This document shows, piece by piece, positions 53,256-59,056 of a DNA stretch of 64,000 bases (positions within the stretch are counted from its first letter, which is position 1; the number at the start of each line of letters is the position of its first letter). This stretch comes from Anaerolineae bacterium (GTDB lineage Bacteria > Chloroflexota > Anaerolineae > Aggregatilineales > Phototrophicaceae): positions 69,526 through 133,525 of the forward strand of contig JBGSXK010000217.1 of NCBI GenBank assembly GCA_041751455.1. The letters run 5' to 3'. The notes below the pieces were generated by a model. That model made no database searches and was not told the DNA's origin. It saw only the letters and a list, made by a program, of their open reading frames with translations. The translations under genes were made by a program, and so were the position numbers.

Positions 53256-55406
53256 TTGAAGCAGTCACCACCTTCATCGCAAGCTGCGCTCCGTCGTCTG
53301 CTGGTTGTTCTGGCGATTGCGGTGGGGTTAGGCATCTATTCTTACGGCTGGTCAGTCACGAATATCGACCTCAGTACCCCGCAGGAAGCCAGCCGCCAGC
53401 AGAACGTGACCAATGCCATGCGCGAACTGCTCTCCCCCCGCATCTTCGAGCAGGAACGCACGCAGGTCACACAGCGGTCAGACTTCCTCATCGGCTGCGA
53501 CGAAGGCCCAGCGCCCGCCGCTGCTGCCCCCCGTGAGGGCGAACCCTACATCATCATCGAGCCGACCTGCGGTGTGCCGGGTGATGTGGTTACTGTGACA
53601 GCCTATAACTTTGCGCCAGACTCACAGGCGGAGATTCGCTGGATTCCCGCAGAGGGCCAGAGCCGCCCGCGTGAAGTCCTCGGCACTCGCCAGACCTCCA
53701 TCATTATCAACACATTAGGCGGTTTTCAGGGGCAGGTTGAAGTGCCGCGCATCAGCGGCAGCATCGGTCAGACCCACGCGGTAGGCTTCGTGGCCAGTGT
53801 CCCCAGCGGCCCCGTCCAGTTCAGCGGCACAACTCACGAAGTGATCCGCCGCATGATCGAGACAATCTTCATGGCACTGGTGGCCACTTCCCTCTCAATC
53901 CCCATCGCGGCGGTACTCAGCTTCTTTGCCGCCCATAATCTGATGCGCCCTATTCGTATTCCTCTCGGCAACATGATGGTGGCGATTACCCTGCTGCCCA
54001 TCGGCTGGTGGCTCGGCAGCCTGCTGCTTGGCGCGCTGGGACGCTTCGCGGTGGATTTGGGCAGCGGTCAGTTGTTGGGCATCAGCGCTGTAAGCCTGCC
54101 CTTGATTTTTGTACTGGGGACGACCGTCGCCTCGCGCAGCCTGGGACAGGTCAATAATAATGATCCGGCTGCCCTGCTCCGTGGTATCACCCGGCTCCTG
54201 CTGACTGTGATTGCGGCCATACTGGTGATTGGCTTATTAGGCGGCCTGGGTGTTTTGGGTGGCGTAGGCTTGCAAAGCCTTGCCGATTCTTTCCGTCCTG
54301 CCCAGGTCAGTACTCTGGGCACCTGGCTCGTCAACGCCCTTGCCGATGGCATCAGCGGCTTTGGTTACATGATCGGCATCCTCGGCGGGTTAATCGACCT
54401 GTTTATCATCCCCATTAGCGGCATCCTGGGGGCGTTTGCCCTGTCCTCCGTCGTGGGCCGTGTCACAGTCCCCATGCTGCGCTATGCCAGTGTGCTGACC
54501 AGCCATGTATTAGGCGGCATCCTGGGCGCGCTCAGTGGTGCAATTGTGCTGGCCGCGGTGGCTGCGGTAGCGATGTCCGCCGCCCTGCTCAGTTTGATCA
54601 CGCCCTTTATCGCTGCCCTTATCGGCGGTCAGATCGTCAGTACGCTTTACAACCGCCTGCTCAGCAGCACCAGTCCCAGCACCCTACTGTGGCGCTCCGG
54701 CCAGCGTATTGTCGGGTGGGTGGGCACAGCGCTGGTATTTGTACTTGTCTTTCAATGGCTTAATACAGGCCGTGCCCTCGTCGATGGCATCCTGCCTTCA
54801 ACCCAGACTGTGAGCTTTCTGTTCCTGCAACTGCCGCCCTATATACTCGATGCCGCGCTGGTCGGATTATTGCTCGGTGCAGTCGGCGGAGCGCTGGCAA
54901 GCACCCATGCTAATTTTGTGTTGGGCGATGTGCTTTACAACATCACCCGCACCCTGCTCAATGCTACCCGCTCCATCGAGCCGCTGATTATGGGCCTGAT
55001 CTTCGTCATCTGGGTGGGCATCGGCCCGTTTGCCGGGGTGCTGGCGCTCACGCTCCACTCGATTGCTTCCCTCGGCAAGCTCTATTCCGAGCAGATCGAA
55101 ACCATCGACGAGGGGCCGATAGAAGCCCTCCGTGCCACAGGCGCGACTCACCTCCAGACCATTATCTACGCCGTAGTCCCACAGATCATCCCACCCTACA
55201 TCGCCTTTACCATGTATCGCTGGGATATCAACGTGCGCATGTCCACCATCATTGGTTTTGTAGGTGGCGGCGGCATTGGCCTGCTGCTCAACCAGCAGAT
55301 TAACCTGCTGCGCTATCGTGATGCGGGTGTCGCCGTGCTGGCGATTGCCATCGTCGTCTCCATCCTCGACTACGCCAGCGCCGCCATCCGTGAGCGGGTG
55401 GGCTAA
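53256..55406 (+). CDS. phnE: Phosphonate ABC permease with a ~450-aa N-terminal extension
   Basis: The C-terminal ~260 aa are PhnE-like (TRSIEPLIMGLIFVIWVG, IDEGPIEALRATGA, STIIGFVGGGGIG). The N-terminal part has a TM helix, a soluble Ig-like segment (YIIIEPTCGVPGDVVTVTAYNF) and many extra TM helices. TTG start. Confidence 0.75.
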   Translation: MKQSPPSSQAALRRLLVVLAIAVGLGIYSYGWSVTNIDLSTPQEASRQQNVTNAMRELLSPRIFEQERTQVTQRSDFLIGCDEGPAPAAAAPREGEPYIIIEPTCGVPGDVVTVTAYNFAPDSQAEIRWIPAEGQSRPREVLGTRQTSIIINTLGGFQGQVEVPRISGSIGQTHAVGFVASVPSGPVQFSGTTHEVIRRMIETIFMALVATSLSIPIAAVLSFFAAHNLMRPIRIPLGNMMVAITLLPIGWWLGSLLLGALGRFAVDLGSGQLLGISAVSLPLIFVLGTTVASRSLGQVNNNDPAALLRGITRLLLTVIAAILVIGLLGGLGVLGGVGLQSLADSFRPAQVSTLGTWLVNALADGISGFGYMIGILGGLIDLFIIPISGILGAFALSSVVGRVTVPMLRYASVLTSHVLGGILGALSGAIVLAAVAAVAMSAALLSLITPFIAALIGGQIVSTLYNRLLSSTSPSTLLWRSGQRIVGWVGTALVFVLVFQWLNTGRALVDGILPSTQTVSFLFLQLPPYILDAALVGLLLGAVGGALASTHANFVLGDVLYNITRTLLNATRSIEPLIMGLIFVIWVGIGPFAGVLALTLHSIASLGKLYSEQIETIDEGPIEALRATGATHLQTIIYAVVPQIIPPYIAFTMYRWDINVRMSTIIGFVGGGGIGLLLNQQINLLRYRDAGVAVLAIAIVVSILDYASAAIRERVG

Positions 55407-56365
55407 CCCTGCTCCGCAGCACCTTCACCGGGGCGGGTGTGCGCCCGTCCCGGTAATCTGATCTGTGGCAGCCGCGCATGGAACTGCACCAGCAAAATTC
55501 CTGCCCCCGCCAGCAGCAACCCCAACCCCACCTTAGGAGTCAGCGCTTCGCCCAGGAACAGCCACGCTAGCACCGGAATTTGAATCATCATCGTGTTATT
55601 GATAACGCTCGACTCCAGGGCCGAAAGCGTCCGCAGGCTGCGATTCCACAGCGTAAAAGCAAACGCCGTATTCACCACCGCCAGCCACACGACAATGACG
55701 ACGCTGGTCAGGCTCAGCGGAGGCAGCCCTTCCACCACCAGCCCGATACCCAGCAAGACCCCCGCCCCGATCCCCATGCTGATCGTCGTCACCAGCAGCG
55801 GCGGGATCGCCAGTGAGCGGTTCACTGCTCGCCCGATCACCGAGGCCAGCGCATTGCTCAGCACCCCACCCACCGTCACCAGCAGGCCAAAGCCCTGCTC
55901 CGCCGGGATATGCAGCGGATAGAAGTAGACCAGCACTCCGCACAGATACAACCCCACACCCATCCACTGCCGCTGTGAGGGATGTTCACGCAGGAGTGCC
56001 GCCCCCAGCAGCGCCACCGCCACCGCGCTGAAGCTCAGCAGCAGGCTGACCGTGATTGCGGGCAGATGTTGCAGGCCGACAAACTGCGCGCCCTGTGTGG
56101 CCGCGTAAAAGATCAGGCCCAGCGCGCTCAGTCGCAGCCAGTCCCGCCGTGAGAGTGGCTGTGCCATCTCATTGATCTTCACATGCCGCAGTGCAAACGG
56201 CAGCAGACACAGGAACGCCAGTACATACCGCAGCCCGGCAAATACCAGCGGCGGAATAGCTTCCTCAATGCCGAATTTGATAAAGACCCACGAGGTTGAC
56301 CACAGAAATGTGACCAGCAGCGCCTGGAACACGGCGCGTGTGTGGAGCAAGAGGTTTGTGAACAT
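55403..56365 (-). CDS. DMT-superfamily (EamA-like) transporter
   Basis: Ten-TM, two-repeat architecture. Motifs include LLVTFLWSTSWVFIK and TLWNRSLRTLSA. Confidence 0.8.
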   Translation of the reverse strand: MFTNLLLHTRAVFQALLVTFLWSTSWVFIKFGIEEAIPPLVFAGLRYVLAFLCLLPFALRHVKINEMAQPLSRRDWLRLSALGLIFYAATQGAQFVGLQHLPAITVSLLLSFSAVAVALLGAALLREHPSQRQWMGVGLYLCGVLVYFYPLHIPAEQGFGLLVTVGGVLSNALASVIGRAVNRSLAIPPLLVTTISMGIGAGVLLGIGLVVEGLPPLSLTSVVIVVWLAVVNTAFAFTLWNRSLRTLSALESSVINNTMMIQIPVLAWLFLGEALTPKVGLGLLLAGAGILLVQFHARLPQIRLPGRAHTRPGEGAAEQG

Positions 56366-56409
56366 ATCACACCTTTCAGATTAGCCAGCAGGCACGTTGA
56401 ACTAATCCA

Positions 56410-56515
56410 ACTTACCCCCTCTGGCGTTTTAATCCTCAAGGTGCGAGCCGCTGCTGCGGCCTTCTGCGGCGCTTGGACCAGTCCCGGTAACATTCCCGGC
56501 GGAACCCTAGCCGCC
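56410..56515 (-). promoter_or_regulatory. ykkC-family (guanidine-I-like) riboswitch candidate, atypical core
   Basis: The minus strand reads GGCUAGGGUUCCG-CCGG(gaauguua)CCGG-GACUGGUCCAAGCG-GCCGC...GCGGC-...GGAUUAAAACGCCAGAGGGG and ends ~45 nt before the DMT ATG. CUAGGGUUCCG and CUGGUCC match the remembered family consensus. GAGAG is replaced by AAGCG and the 3' domain is divergent. Confidence 0.5.
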
Positions 56516-56757
56516 CTTTGGTTGGGCACTTCTAATTTAGCATGTCTCTGGGGGGAAGTCTACAACCACCCTCACCCTGAACATCACGGTTGTTCGCGTA
56601 CAGCCGCCCTGCGCTGGCGAATCCGCGTCTGATCGTCGGCACTATAGCGCTCAAACGCCAGCGGAAGCTGGCTGTACTCGCTTGCCTGCCGGTAAATGCG
56701 GGTGCTGATTCCGCTGTATATAAACCATTTTCAAACATTTACCTGTTTCTGACCTGT

Positions 56758-56786
56758 TTTTCAGGCACTTGAATACGCGCTATACT
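56758..56786 (+). promoter_or_regulatory. Weak promoter candidate for the diol-dehydratase gene
   Basis: TTTTCA (56758-56763), a 17-nt spacer, then TATACT (56781-56786). AGGAAG lies 8 nt before ATG 56819. Confidence 0.3.
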
Positions 56787-56818: not shown

Positions 56819-59056
56819 ATGACCCATTCCCGCCGCTTCGAGGTACTCAGCCAGCGCCCCATCAACCGCGAAACCTTCGTCGAACCCTGGCCCGAAGCCG
56901 GGCTGATGGTCACGGACAGCCCCTATGATCCACAGCCCAGCTTGCGTCTGGAAAACGGGCAGGTCATGGAAATCGACGGTCGCCCGCGTGAAAACTTCGA
57001 CGCGCTCGACCTCTTCATCACCGCCCATGCGCTCGATCTCAGCGTGGCCGAGGAAGCAATGGCGACCCCTTCACAGCATTACGCCCGGATGCTGGCCGAC
57101 ATCAACGTGCCCGCCGGGGAAATTCGGCGGCTGGTGCGTGGCTGCACCCCCGCCAAACTGGTCGAGATCATCCGGCATATGAATGTGCTGGAAATGATGA
57201 TGGGCCTGGCGAAGATGCGTATCCGCCGCACCCCGGCCAATCAGGCCCACGTCACCAACTGGCGCGAACACCCGGCGCTGCTGGCCGCCGACTCAGCCGA
57301 AGCCGCCCTGCGTGGCTTTGCCGAGGTCGAAACCACCGTCCGTGTGGCGCGCGCCGCGCCATTCAATGCCCTTGCCATTCTCGTCGGCACCCAGACCGGG
57401 CGCGGCGGTGTGCTGACGCAGTGCGCGGTCGAGGAATCGCTCGGCCTCAAAATCGCCATGAAGGGCTTAACCACTTATGCTGAGACACTTTCGGTCTACG
57501 GTACAGAGCGCGTCTTTGTCGATGGTGATGATACCCCCTGGTCAAAAGCCTTTCTCGCCTCGGCCTACGCCTCGCGCGGCGTGAAGATCCGCTTCACCAG
57601 TGGCACTGGTTCAGAGGCGCTCATGGGTCATGCCGAGCAATGCTCCATGCTCTATCTTGAGGCGCGCTGCCTGCTCGTGACCGTCGGCGCAGGCAGTCAG
57701 GGTGTCCAGAATGGCTCGATTAGCTGTATTGCCCTGCCCGAAGCGCTGCCCGGCGGCGTGCGCGCCGTGCTGGCAGAAAACTTGCTCGCGTCCATGCTCG
57801 GCCTTGAAGTCGCTTCCGGCAATGATGCCCTGGCCTCCCATTCCGAGATTCGCAAATCCGCTAAGCTCATGCTCCAGTTCATCCCCGGAACAGACTTCAT
57901 CTTCAGCGGTTACAGCGCCGTCCCCAAACGCGACAATATGTTCGGCGGCGGCAACTTCGATGCCGACGATCTCGACGATTACAACGTGCTTCAGCGGGAT
58001 ATGCAGATTGATGGCGGCCTTCGCCCCGTCACTGAGGAAGAAGTGCTGACGATCCGCCGTAGAGGGGCGCTGGCGATCCAGTCCGTTTACGCCGGGATGG
58101 GCTTCCCACCCATCAGCGATCTGGAAGTTGAGGCGGCGGTGAGCGCTCACAACAGTGATGACATGCCGGAGCGTGATCTGGTGGCCGACCTCAACGCCGC
58201 CGATCAGTTCCTCGCCAGCGAGGATACGGTGCTGGCCGTGGTCAGCGTGTTGCAGGCAGGCGGCTTTGAGGATGTCGCCCACAATATTCTGGAGATGAGC
58301 CGCCAGCGTCTGGCTGCCGATTACCTTCAGCCATCTGCCATTTTTAATCACGCTTTCCAGGTGCAGAGCGCCATCAATGACCCCAATGATTACACCGGCC
58401 CCGGTACAGGCCATCGCGTAATCGGCGCGCGCTGGGAGGAAATCCAGCGCATCCCACAGGCCAGGTCGCCGCGCGACTTCATTAAAGACCAGATGGGTGA
58501 CCCTTCACCCCGCCTGGTTGAACTCGGCCCCGCTGCACCTGGCACCTCGCCGCACGAGGTTGTCATCGGCATCGGCCCCGCCTTCGGGCGCGATCTCACC
58601 CACACCATTGGCGGGCTGGAGCATGAAGCCGTGTTGGAAGCTGTCCTCACAGGCATCGCTCATGAGGGACTGGTCGCGCGCGTGGTGAAGGTCTACCACA
58701 CCTCAGACTGTGCCGCTATCGGCCATGTCGCCGCCCGCCTCAGTGGGAGTGGCATCGGCATCGGCCTGCAATCGCGTGGTACAACAGTCATCCAGAAGAA
58801 GGGCCTCGCCCCTCTCAACAACCTCGAGCTGTTCCCACAGTCGCCCAGCCTCACCCTCCTCCATTATCAGGCCATCGGCCATAATGCCGCCTGTTATGCG
58901 AAGGGGCTGTCACCTACCCCCGTGGCCGTCAAGGTGGATAACGGCGCGCGCCTGCGCCTGATCGTCAGGACTGCCCTGCTCCACCGCCGCGAAACCGAAG
59001 AAGTCCGCCCCGACCAGCTTCCCGTAGAGCTGCACTTCGATTGGGAGCCAGCTTAG
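56819..59056 (+). CDS. B12-dependent diol/glycerol dehydratase, fused large (PduC-like) and medium (PduD-like) subunits
   Basis: aa 1-~555 are collinear by eye with PduC/DhaB1 (RRTPANQAHVTN, LTQCAVEES, YAETLSVYGTE, DDTPWSKAFLAS, GVQNGS, ASGND, FSGYSAVP, DDYNVLQRD). aa ~565-745 match PduD (EVVIGIGPAF, LSGSGIGIGLQSRGTTVI, LNNLELF). Confidence 0.88.
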   Translation: MTHSRRFEVLSQRPINRETFVEPWPEAGLMVTDSPYDPQPSLRLENGQVMEIDGRPRENFDALDLFITAHALDLSVAEEAMATPSQHYARMLADINVPAGEIRRLVRGCTPAKLVEIIRHMNVLEMMMGLAKMRIRRTPANQAHVTNWREHPALLAADSAEAALRGFAEVETTVRVARAAPFNALAILVGTQTGRGGVLTQCAVEESLGLKIAMKGLTTYAETLSVYGTERVFVDGDDTPWSKAFLASAYASRGVKIRFTSGTGSEALMGHAEQCSMLYLEARCLLVTVGAGSQGVQNGSISCIALPEALPGGVRAVLAENLLASMLGLEVASGNDALASHSEIRKSAKLMLQFIPGTDFIFSGYSAVPKRDNMFGGGNFDADDLDDYNVLQRDMQIDGGLRPVTEEEVLTIRRRGALAIQSVYAGMGFPPISDLEVEAAVSAHNSDDMPERDLVADLNAADQFLASEDTVLAVVSVLQAGGFEDVAHNILEMSRQRLAADYLQPSAIFNHAFQVQSAINDPNDYTGPGTGHRVIGARWEEIQRIPQARSPRDFIKDQMGDPSPRLVELGPAAPGTSPHEVVIGIGPAFGRDLTHTIGGLEHEAVLEAVLTGIAHEGLVARVVKVYHTSDCAAIGHVAARLSGSGIGIGLQSRGTTVIQKKGLAPLNNLELFPQSPSLTLLHYQAIGHNAACYAKGLSPTPVAVKVDNGARLRLIVRTALLHRRETEEVRPDQLPVELHFDWEPA

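Follow-up and report, generated by a model that had tools for sequence, protein, structure and literature searches.

A putative subtype 2d ykkC riboswitch upstream of an EamA exporter gene in a hot-spring Chloroflexota genome

The EamA leader and its aptamer

The window studied here is a stretch of 64,000 nucleotides (nt) from an Anaerolineae bacterium (contig JBGSXK010000217.1, positions 69,526 to 133,525), and our subject is the leader of a single gene on its minus strand. The gene, at 55403-56365, encodes a 320-amino-acid (aa) EamA/drug-metabolite transporter (DMT) protein with two EamA domains (Pfam EamA, 7.8e-39), whose best NCBIfam match is TIGR00950 '2A78', under that family's cut-off. 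It is intact and monocistronic. The leader sits between this gene and the end of an upstream 68-codon open reading frame (ORF), and it holds the minus-strand ykkC-like RNA that an earlier note on this DNA had placed there. The best explanation of the whole is that this RNA is probably a functional aptamer, and a putative riboswitch, of the orphan ykkC subtype 2d, which controls the single downstream EamA exporter gene.

The complete ykkC-fold aptamer, outer helix P0 included, spans 56405-56527 on the minus strand and was delimited with two covariance models; its P0 ends 41 nt before the AUG. The earlier note had proposed an Infernal search with the Rfam guanidine-I model, and that search returned a significant match: RF00442 (Guanidine-I) aligned over its full length, model positions 1-107, to 56416-56521 with 46.4 bits. 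The E-value is 2.9e-7 in the local search and 7.3e-7 in a search of the whole 4.86-Mb genome, in which this is the sole match, and the match is far above chance. The score is lower than the curated gathering score of 63 bits, so a default Rfam scan of the window reports nothing. The second model, R1, was made from a MAFFT alignment (A2) of 54 homologues; it gives 56405-56527 111.1 bits (E 8.4e-28), near the top of the family, and again finds no other match in the genome.

The leader is a full-length, intact ykkC-fold aptamer. Its first domain, P1/P1a/P1b (56466-56514, minus strand, as for all the parts below), is closed by helix P1, in which GCGGC (56514-10) pairs with GCCGC (56470-66); P1 is 100% paired among the relatives and four of its five pairs covary. 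Within the domain lie the conserved strand CUAGGGUUCCG (56510-56500), the hairpin P1b (56499-84), which covaries, and the conserved strand GACUGGUCCAAGCG (56483-56470), both conserved strands being invariant in 77 sequences. The P2 hairpin GGCCGC-AGCA-GCGGCU follows at 56446-56461, and all five of its pairs change on both sides in the 77-sequence alignment. The P3 domain (56417-56443), the presumed ligand pocket, is laid out as in the published model of the phosphoribosyl pyrophosphate (PRPP) riboswitch (CCR...AGR-nGG): its core is C56443-A-CCU, its upper stem GG/CC bears an A-rich loop (56435-23), its bulge is A-G56421-A, and GGG (56419-17) belongs to the lower stem. In that stem, C56441:G56417 is a covarying pair (CG 42, UA 26), and both G56421 and C56440 are invariant in the 77 RNAs. 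The CUAGGGUUCCG and CUGGUCC strands, the AAAA loop, the C of CAC and the S-turn G are all present in the window.

The minus-strand sequence given in the earlier note stood up. It has the GAGGGGG tail, an A-rich loop in P3 and, towards the gene, AAAGG as ribosome-binding site and an ATG at 56365. The note's transcription was right except for one surplus G (it wrote AAGCG GCCGC; the actual sequence is AAGCGCCGC). Its "second hairpin", GCCGC...GCGGC, was a misparse: that GCCGC (56470-66) closes P1 with GCGGC (56514-10), and the real P2 is GGCCGC/GCGGCU (56461-46). The extent that it gave, 56410-56515, was too short, as P0 stretches the element to 56405-56527.

Conservation of the fold was judged on two alignments. 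For the unfitted one, 54 transporter-associated representatives were aligned with plain MAFFT and the helices were then written down. Standard pairs fill 86.8% of the cells, versus 29-49% in controls whose 3' partners were shifted by 1-3 columns, and 213 cells show changes on both sides, versus 41-78 in the same controls; none of 500 shuffles reached the observed covariation values. In the larger alignment of 77 sequences, which was fitted to R1 and hence leans towards the structure, 91.2% of the cells pair and 433 are double-change cells. The helices therefore covary in homologous leaders, the second check that the earlier note had named. At 26 positions, at least 97% of the 77 RNAs have the same nucleotide, and the window keeps every one of them; its sole departure from the 85% consensus is A56474, which is mostly G elsewhere.

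The outer helix P0 is formed by CCAAC (56521-56525), upstream of the start of the Rfam model, and GUUGG (56407-56411), right after the GAGGGGGUAA tail. The linker J0/1, CAAAGG (56515-56520), parts it from P1; in relatives this linker is purine-rich and 5-7 nt long, and reads GAAGG or AAAGG in most type-A relatives, those with leaders of the window's type. P0 was located in the relatives by a position-constrained search with manual checks, and its two segments pair in nearly all of them while changing together: examples are UCAAAC/GUUUGA, GUCGGUC/GGCCGGC, CAUCGACC/GGUCGAUG, CAUGAACU/GGUUCAUG, CCAUCC/GGAUGG and UCGAC/GUCGA. All six P0 pairs covary in the unfitted MAFFT alignment (e.g. CG 21, UA 19, UG 11 at one pair and AU 25, GC 20 at another).

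Around the leader, the 68-codon ORF (56532-56738, minus strand, no Pfam match) ends about 5 nt upstream of P0. A gene for a fused large- and medium-subunit B12-dependent diol/glycerol dehydratase (56819-59056, plus strand) starts divergently from this ORF and has a sigma-70-like promoter match at 56758-56786 on the plus strand; no sigma-70-type promoter was found on the minus strand. On the other side, a convergent gene (53256-55406, plus strand) shares 4 nt (55403-55406) with the 3' end of the EamA gene; it encodes a 716-aa protein that matches the ABC permease domain BPD_transp_1 only in its C-terminal ~160 aa. Two DNA runs of one hot-spring metagenome study contain positions 56200-56700 of the window nearly in full (0.92 and 0.88 of sampled words) and probably come from the source sample.

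Expression platform and direction of the switch

Two pairings between the aptamer and the start of the gene could form the expression platform. The first is an anti-P0 hairpin, UUGGAUUAG...CUAAUCUGA (56376-56410, minus strand), which cannot form together with P0 because its 5' arm and the P0 3' strand overlap. It ends at the Shine-Dalgarno sequence (SD), which is GAAAGGUG at 56377-70, followed by the AUG at 56365-63 (together 56363-56377), and an equivalent hairpin follows P0 in the relatives. The second pairing involves the aptamer itself: the strand UCGCACCUU (56438-56446) can form 9 bp with AAGGUGUGA (56375-67), the segment covering the SD, and the two are paired in the minimum-free-energy fold, so that this strand could double as an anti-SD. 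The GGAUUAG...CUAAUC pairing around AAAGG described in the earlier note is also there in the minus-strand sequence.

The second pairing was followed through the relatives. P0 lies 26-56 nt from the start codon in the 31 type-A leaders (76 nt in L002), and an aptamer:SD duplex of at least 7 bp is found in 19 of the 31. Since CACCU on its own is like the ribosomal anti-SD, scoring was confined to its flanks. In 20 of 20 leaders, the base just 5' of CAC finds its pairing partner in the base that follows GGUG (G:C 9, G:U 8, C:G 2, A:U 1). The duplex extends by a mean of 2.15 bp when each leader is paired with itself and by 1.26 bp in cross-pairings, with a permutation p of ~1e-4 that is uncorrected for relatedness.

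The mechanism proposed from these pairings would work as follows. In the absence of ligand, P0 would lose its 3' strand to the hairpin UUGGAUUAG/CUAAUCUGA, and UCGCACCUU, the core strand, would pair with AAGGUGUGA; the SD would be hidden and the gene off. Once ligand is bound, the core strand would be held in the pocket by P0 and the lower P3 stem (CCU/GGG), and the freed SD would allow the exporter to be made. In some relatives the same competition between P0 and the hairpin might instead form or prevent a terminator. The known-ligand subtypes that have been described by switch direction, guanidine-I, PRPP and guanosine tetraphosphate (ppGpp), are ON switches (PMC6031431). We lean towards the same direction here, a ligand-activated ON switch.

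Several points weigh against this mechanism. CACCU resembles the anti-SD of 16S rRNA, so the complementarity is partly expected, and the permutation test ignores the relatedness of the leaders. When the aptamer was enforced in folding, the unpaired probability of the SD rose modestly, from a mean of 0.22 to 0.32; its accessibility went up in 12 leaders and down in 5, in nearest-neighbour folding that cannot capture the tertiary or ligand-bound state. Because that gain is only modest, ligand-driven release of the SD is something that we infer. A GGUG-type SD is absent in 11 of the 31 type-A leaders, and these must work somewhat differently. Among the sequencing runs listed for the locus, no RNA-seq run contains it.

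The same riboswitch class could also act on transcription here, through Rho-dependent or intrinsic termination. In 5 of 54 leaders the P0-competing hairpin reaches into the J3/0 linker with a U run behind it, as in a terminator, and in PRPP and ppGpp riboswitches P0 is part of a terminator platform (PMC6031431). In the window, however, the hairpin is not trailed by a U run, a terminator-like site was not found on the minus strand, the distance from P0 to the AUG is just 41 nt, and the aptamer:SD complementarity covaries. Control of transcription in this genome is therefore rather unlikely, and the balance tips slightly towards a switch that acts mainly on translation.

P0 and the aptamer:SD pairing may be new details of the class. 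In PRPP and ppGpp riboswitches, P0 is stacked on P3, enlarges the pocket to suit a bigger ligand and joins the expression platform (PMC6031431), and extra conserved 5' and 3' nucleotides are mentioned for subtypes 2a-2c only (PMC5912903). The literature passages searched described no P0 with a 5-7-nt linker and no CACCU-strand anti-SD for 2d. We tentatively raise the possibility that all 2d RNAs carry an undescribed P0 behind a purine linker, visible through covariation only, and that in the window's lineage the pocket strand serves as the anti-SD. If P0 is new, the true aptamer is ~20 nt longer than the three-hairpin model, and screens on shorter constructs could have overlooked its ligand. 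The analogy with P0 of 2a-2c could then point to a larger anionic metabolite as that ligand, rather than to a guanidine-like cation.

Class assignment, relatives and ligand

The ykkC motif comprises guanidine-I (subtype 1) and subtypes 2a (ppGpp), 2b (PRPP), 2c (adenosine or cytidine diphosphate, ADP/CDP) and 2d. The candidate subtype 2d is reportedly due to Nelson 2017 and Sherlock 2018 and 2019. The window's leader bears two changes relative to guanidine-I, C56471 (GAGAG to GAGCG) and C56440 (CACGG to CACCU), and the discriminator C at 56471 is invariant in 77 of 77 transporter-associated RNAs. Subtype 2 is marked by a pyrimidine in place of the adenine of GAGAG (PMC6031431, PMC8457001), which is A38, A46 or A55 in three published numberings (PMC5340920, PMC6031431, PMC8457001), and the pocket-floor G of CACGG likewise gives way to a pyrimidine (PMC5340920). 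The replacement of GAGAG by AAGCG that the earlier note observed is thus real, and it is the class-defining change of subtype 2, not a sign of decay. Subtype 2d is the orphan associated with EamA/phn_DUF6/TauE genes (PMC7266159, PMC5912903). It was still listed as unknown or orphan in 2021 and 2023 (PMC8457001, PMC9881157), and no report of a 2d ligand turned up in the papers searched, which run to 2026.

In a tree built from RNA only, with 131 subtype-2-type leaders, all DMT-, TauE- and MFS-associated (major facilitator superfamily) RNAs fall in one clade, apart from the PRPP/ppGpp-like leaders; the alignment took in up to 100 nt of 3' flank before the column filter. Because of its gene association, its marker nucleotides and this clustering, the leader is very probably a transporter-type subtype 2d ykkC riboswitch, and a new member of a published orphan class, from a hot-spring Chloroflexota genome. 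The earlier note had offered a functional variant, possibly with another ligand as in the subtype-2 classes, as one of two readings, and the marker, the gene association and the covariation across phyla all favour it. On the other side of the scale, 2d membership rests on those three lines and not on a comparison with the published 2d consensus, the RF00442 score of 46.4 bits is under the gathering threshold of 63, and there is no ligand on record for subtype 2d.

The gene association recurs among the relatives. In the same order, 14 of 61 genomes, the window's own included, carry one or two sub-threshold elements (32-63 bits), and none of the 61 has a guanidine-I match above the cut-off. Thirteen of the 15 elements precede an ortholog of the window's EamA protein (N-terminus ...LQALxVTFLWSTSW), and the other two precede a second DMT type with best NCBIfam match TIGR03340 'phn_DUF6' (125 and 116 bits). 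One genome, G023, has both contexts, with L012 before a window-type EamA gene and L015 before a phn_DUF6-like DMT gene; its two riboswitch copies suggest that both transporter types answer to the same signal.

Farther afield, a pattern scan for CUAGGGUUCCG...GGWYCRAGCG, with one genome per species, returned at least 120 loci. Among the matches listed, 53 of 120 have one of the two DMT types downstream (tblastn with DMT queries), and the loci span at least six phyla. The carriers include Chloroflexota, Cyanobacteria, Burkholderiales, Acidobacteriota and others, among them Actinomycetota (Acidimicrobiia, Microbacterium, Leifsonia, Mycolicibacterium) and Alphaproteobacteria (Paracoccus denitrificans, Ruegeria, Bradyrhizobium). 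Downstream of this RNA type, Mycolicibacterium and Actinopolymorpha have TauE/SafE genes and Nesterenkonia has an MFS gene. Other listed loci are Firmicutes-type leaders with terminators before other genes, several of which adjoin a guanine aptamer, the published tandem guanine-PRPP arrangement.

Some loci depart from this pattern. At L042:7411-7535 (a Melainabacteria metagenome-assembled genome) and L123 (Actinokineospora inagensis), an RNA of the transporter-associated clade stands directly upstream of guaA, whose product, GMP synthase, has the Pfam domains GATase and GMP_synt_C. This RNA has the P0 GCUGACCG/CGGUCGGC and a smaller internal loop in P3 (CAUCU-CC-GGG...CCC-AG-GGA). Such RNAs could form another specificity class, or else hint at a guanine-nucleotide-linked 2d ligand. 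At L137:1501-1623 (genome G091, of the window's family), the orthologous EamA leader has P0 and the usual tail, but its discriminator is A (CCAAGAGCGGC) and its core CACCGG, so that it has gone part of the way back to the guanidine-I signature. In the Chloroflexota family f25, subtype-2-type ykkC RNAs with a GAAAG-type P0 (L146, L151, L152, L154, L139 and L145) precede genes for a 213-aa histidine phosphatase (His_Phos_1), which differs from the published 2c association with NUDIX/HAD (haloacid dehalogenase) genes; other subtype-2-type RNAs noted with this set precede purL, together with a guanine aptamer, or a xanthine/uracil permease gene. A genuine guanidine-I element seems to be present at L144, where the gene of an NMT1-like binding protein follows.

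The ligand of the window's RNA is presumably the substrate of the exporter. In our opinion, and this is a guess by analogy, a small anionic or phosphorylated metabolite is at least as plausible as a guanidine-like cation, because four exporter families are controlled (EamA, phn_DUF6-like DMT, TauE and MFS) and because P0 is of the kind used for polyanionic ligands in 2a-2c. No recurrent neighbour family was found beyond close relatives. Adjacency to phnDCE was considered as a ligand clue and rejected, since only one close relative has it in common with the window.

If the leader were instead a divergent but genuine guanidine-I riboswitch, it would sense guanidine and turn on a DMT protein that exports it. 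Guanidine-I is indeed the only Rfam family that matches the leader, the DMT superfamily includes the SMR (small multidrug resistance) guanidine exporters, and 2d has been called the subtype nearest to guanidine-I (PMC5912903). That match does not discriminate, however, as PRPP-type leaders give it too, and its score is under the gathering threshold. C56471 and C56440 are the very changes that define the non-guanidine subtype 2 (PMC5340920, PMC6031431, PMC8457001). In vitro, G67A at the pocket floor (D. dadantii numbering) lowers guanidine binding ~200-fold and A38G lowers it ~10-fold, though neither is the same substitution as in the window (PMC5340920). Guanidine carboxylase and SMR genes are absent from the aptamer's gene context, and a guanidine sensor here is improbable.

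We give still less credit to a conserved ykkC-scaffold leader that answers to a protein, to temperature or to Mg2+ and not to a small metabolite, a very improbable reading. The organism comes from a hot-spring metagenome and no 2d ligand has been found since the subtype was defined in 2017-2018, which would fit such a leader. Yet the ligand of each solved ykkC subtype is a small molecule that occupies one common pocket region, the invariant nucleotides are concentrated around the presumed pocket, and the class also occurs in mesophiles (Paracoccus, Microbacterium, Nostocales). A decaying or non-functional ykkC remnant, the other reading offered in the earlier note, might explain the sub-threshold Rfam score and the non-canonical 3' domain but is hardly credible and was discarded, given the 26 of 26 class-invariant nucleotides kept, the single departure from the 85% consensus, the 111 bits against the class model near the family top, the helices that covary across phyla and the intact EamA gene downstream.

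Subtype 2d is the only ykkC family member without a solved structure, and its ligand would show what the widespread EamA, TauE and MFS exporters remove from cells. The comparative set yields exact, P0-inclusive construct boundaries for ligand screens along with the 26 invariant nucleotides, and Paracoccus denitrificans DSM 413, Microbacterium and Mycolicibacterium are tractable carriers. Annotation pipelines that use Rfam gathering scores miss the whole class.

Comparison with known ykkC riboswitches

PRPP and ppGpp riboswitches (2b/2a) have the same scaffold and the same discriminator C as the window, and were compared by means of the published PRPP consensus (supplement 2 of PMC5912903). The lower P3 stem is CCR...nGG in the PRPP riboswitch and CCU...GGG in the window; the three-nucleotide bulge with the conserved G is AGR in the former and AGA (G56421) in the latter. 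The PRPP class keeps the S-turn G, as does the window, and the tail ...GG-R-UAGGUU of PRPP/ppGpp riboswitches is common to both. These riboswitches also have an add-on P0, formed by the ends of the aptamer and serving the expression platform, and the window likewise has a covarying P0.

The differences begin at this helix. In PRPP riboswitches P0 abuts P1 across a single G, whereas in the window the gap is CAAAGG, and in most members of the window's class P0 takes in the counterparts of G104 and G105, two nucleotides that touch phosphate in the PRPP riboswitch. The core is GCACCU in the window's class and ACACCR in PRPP/ppGpp riboswitches. The consensus of the latter (GAAAG abutting P1, YACACCR, CCCAGRnGGRYAGGUUUC) does not fit the window, which has the CAAAGG linker, CGCACCU and GCCAGAGGGGGUAAGUUGG. 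The controlled genes differ too, being exporter genes in the window's class and genes of purine or (branched-chain) amino-acid biosynthesis in the PRPP/ppGpp classes. The platform appears to be translational in the window and in most of the type-A relatives examined, whereas PRPP/ppGpp riboswitches have been assayed by transcription termination.

Guanidine-I (RF00442) shares with the window the fold, the CUAGGGUUCCG and CUGGUCC strands, a P3 loop rich in A, a pair between the S-turn G and the C of CAC, and the control of exporters of the DMT superfamily. From guanidine-I to the window, GAGAG becomes GAGCG, CACGG becomes CACCU, GGGAG becomes AGAGG and P0 is added; unlike guanidine-I, the window has no guanidine-metabolism context. 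The equivalent of the guanidinium-binding G85 is A56420 or G56419, depending on whether the Rfam or the PRPP-type alignment register is used.

Rfam annotation cannot separate these subtypes, because PRPP-type leaders match Guanidine-I only. The copy of Rfam release 15 used here holds no PRPP, ppGpp, nucleoside diphosphate or 2d models, and the absence of other Rfam matches at the window is therefore uninformative. At L088, L031 and L141, tandem leaders of guanine and PRPP type are reported as Purine riboswitch plus Guanidine-I, the latter with 59.9-63.3 bits (cut-off 63).

Published subtype 2d, said to be the subtype most similar to guanidine-I (PMC5912903), likewise has the ykkC fold and the discriminator pyrimidine, and it likewise stands directly upstream of EamA (phn_DUF6) and TauE genes.

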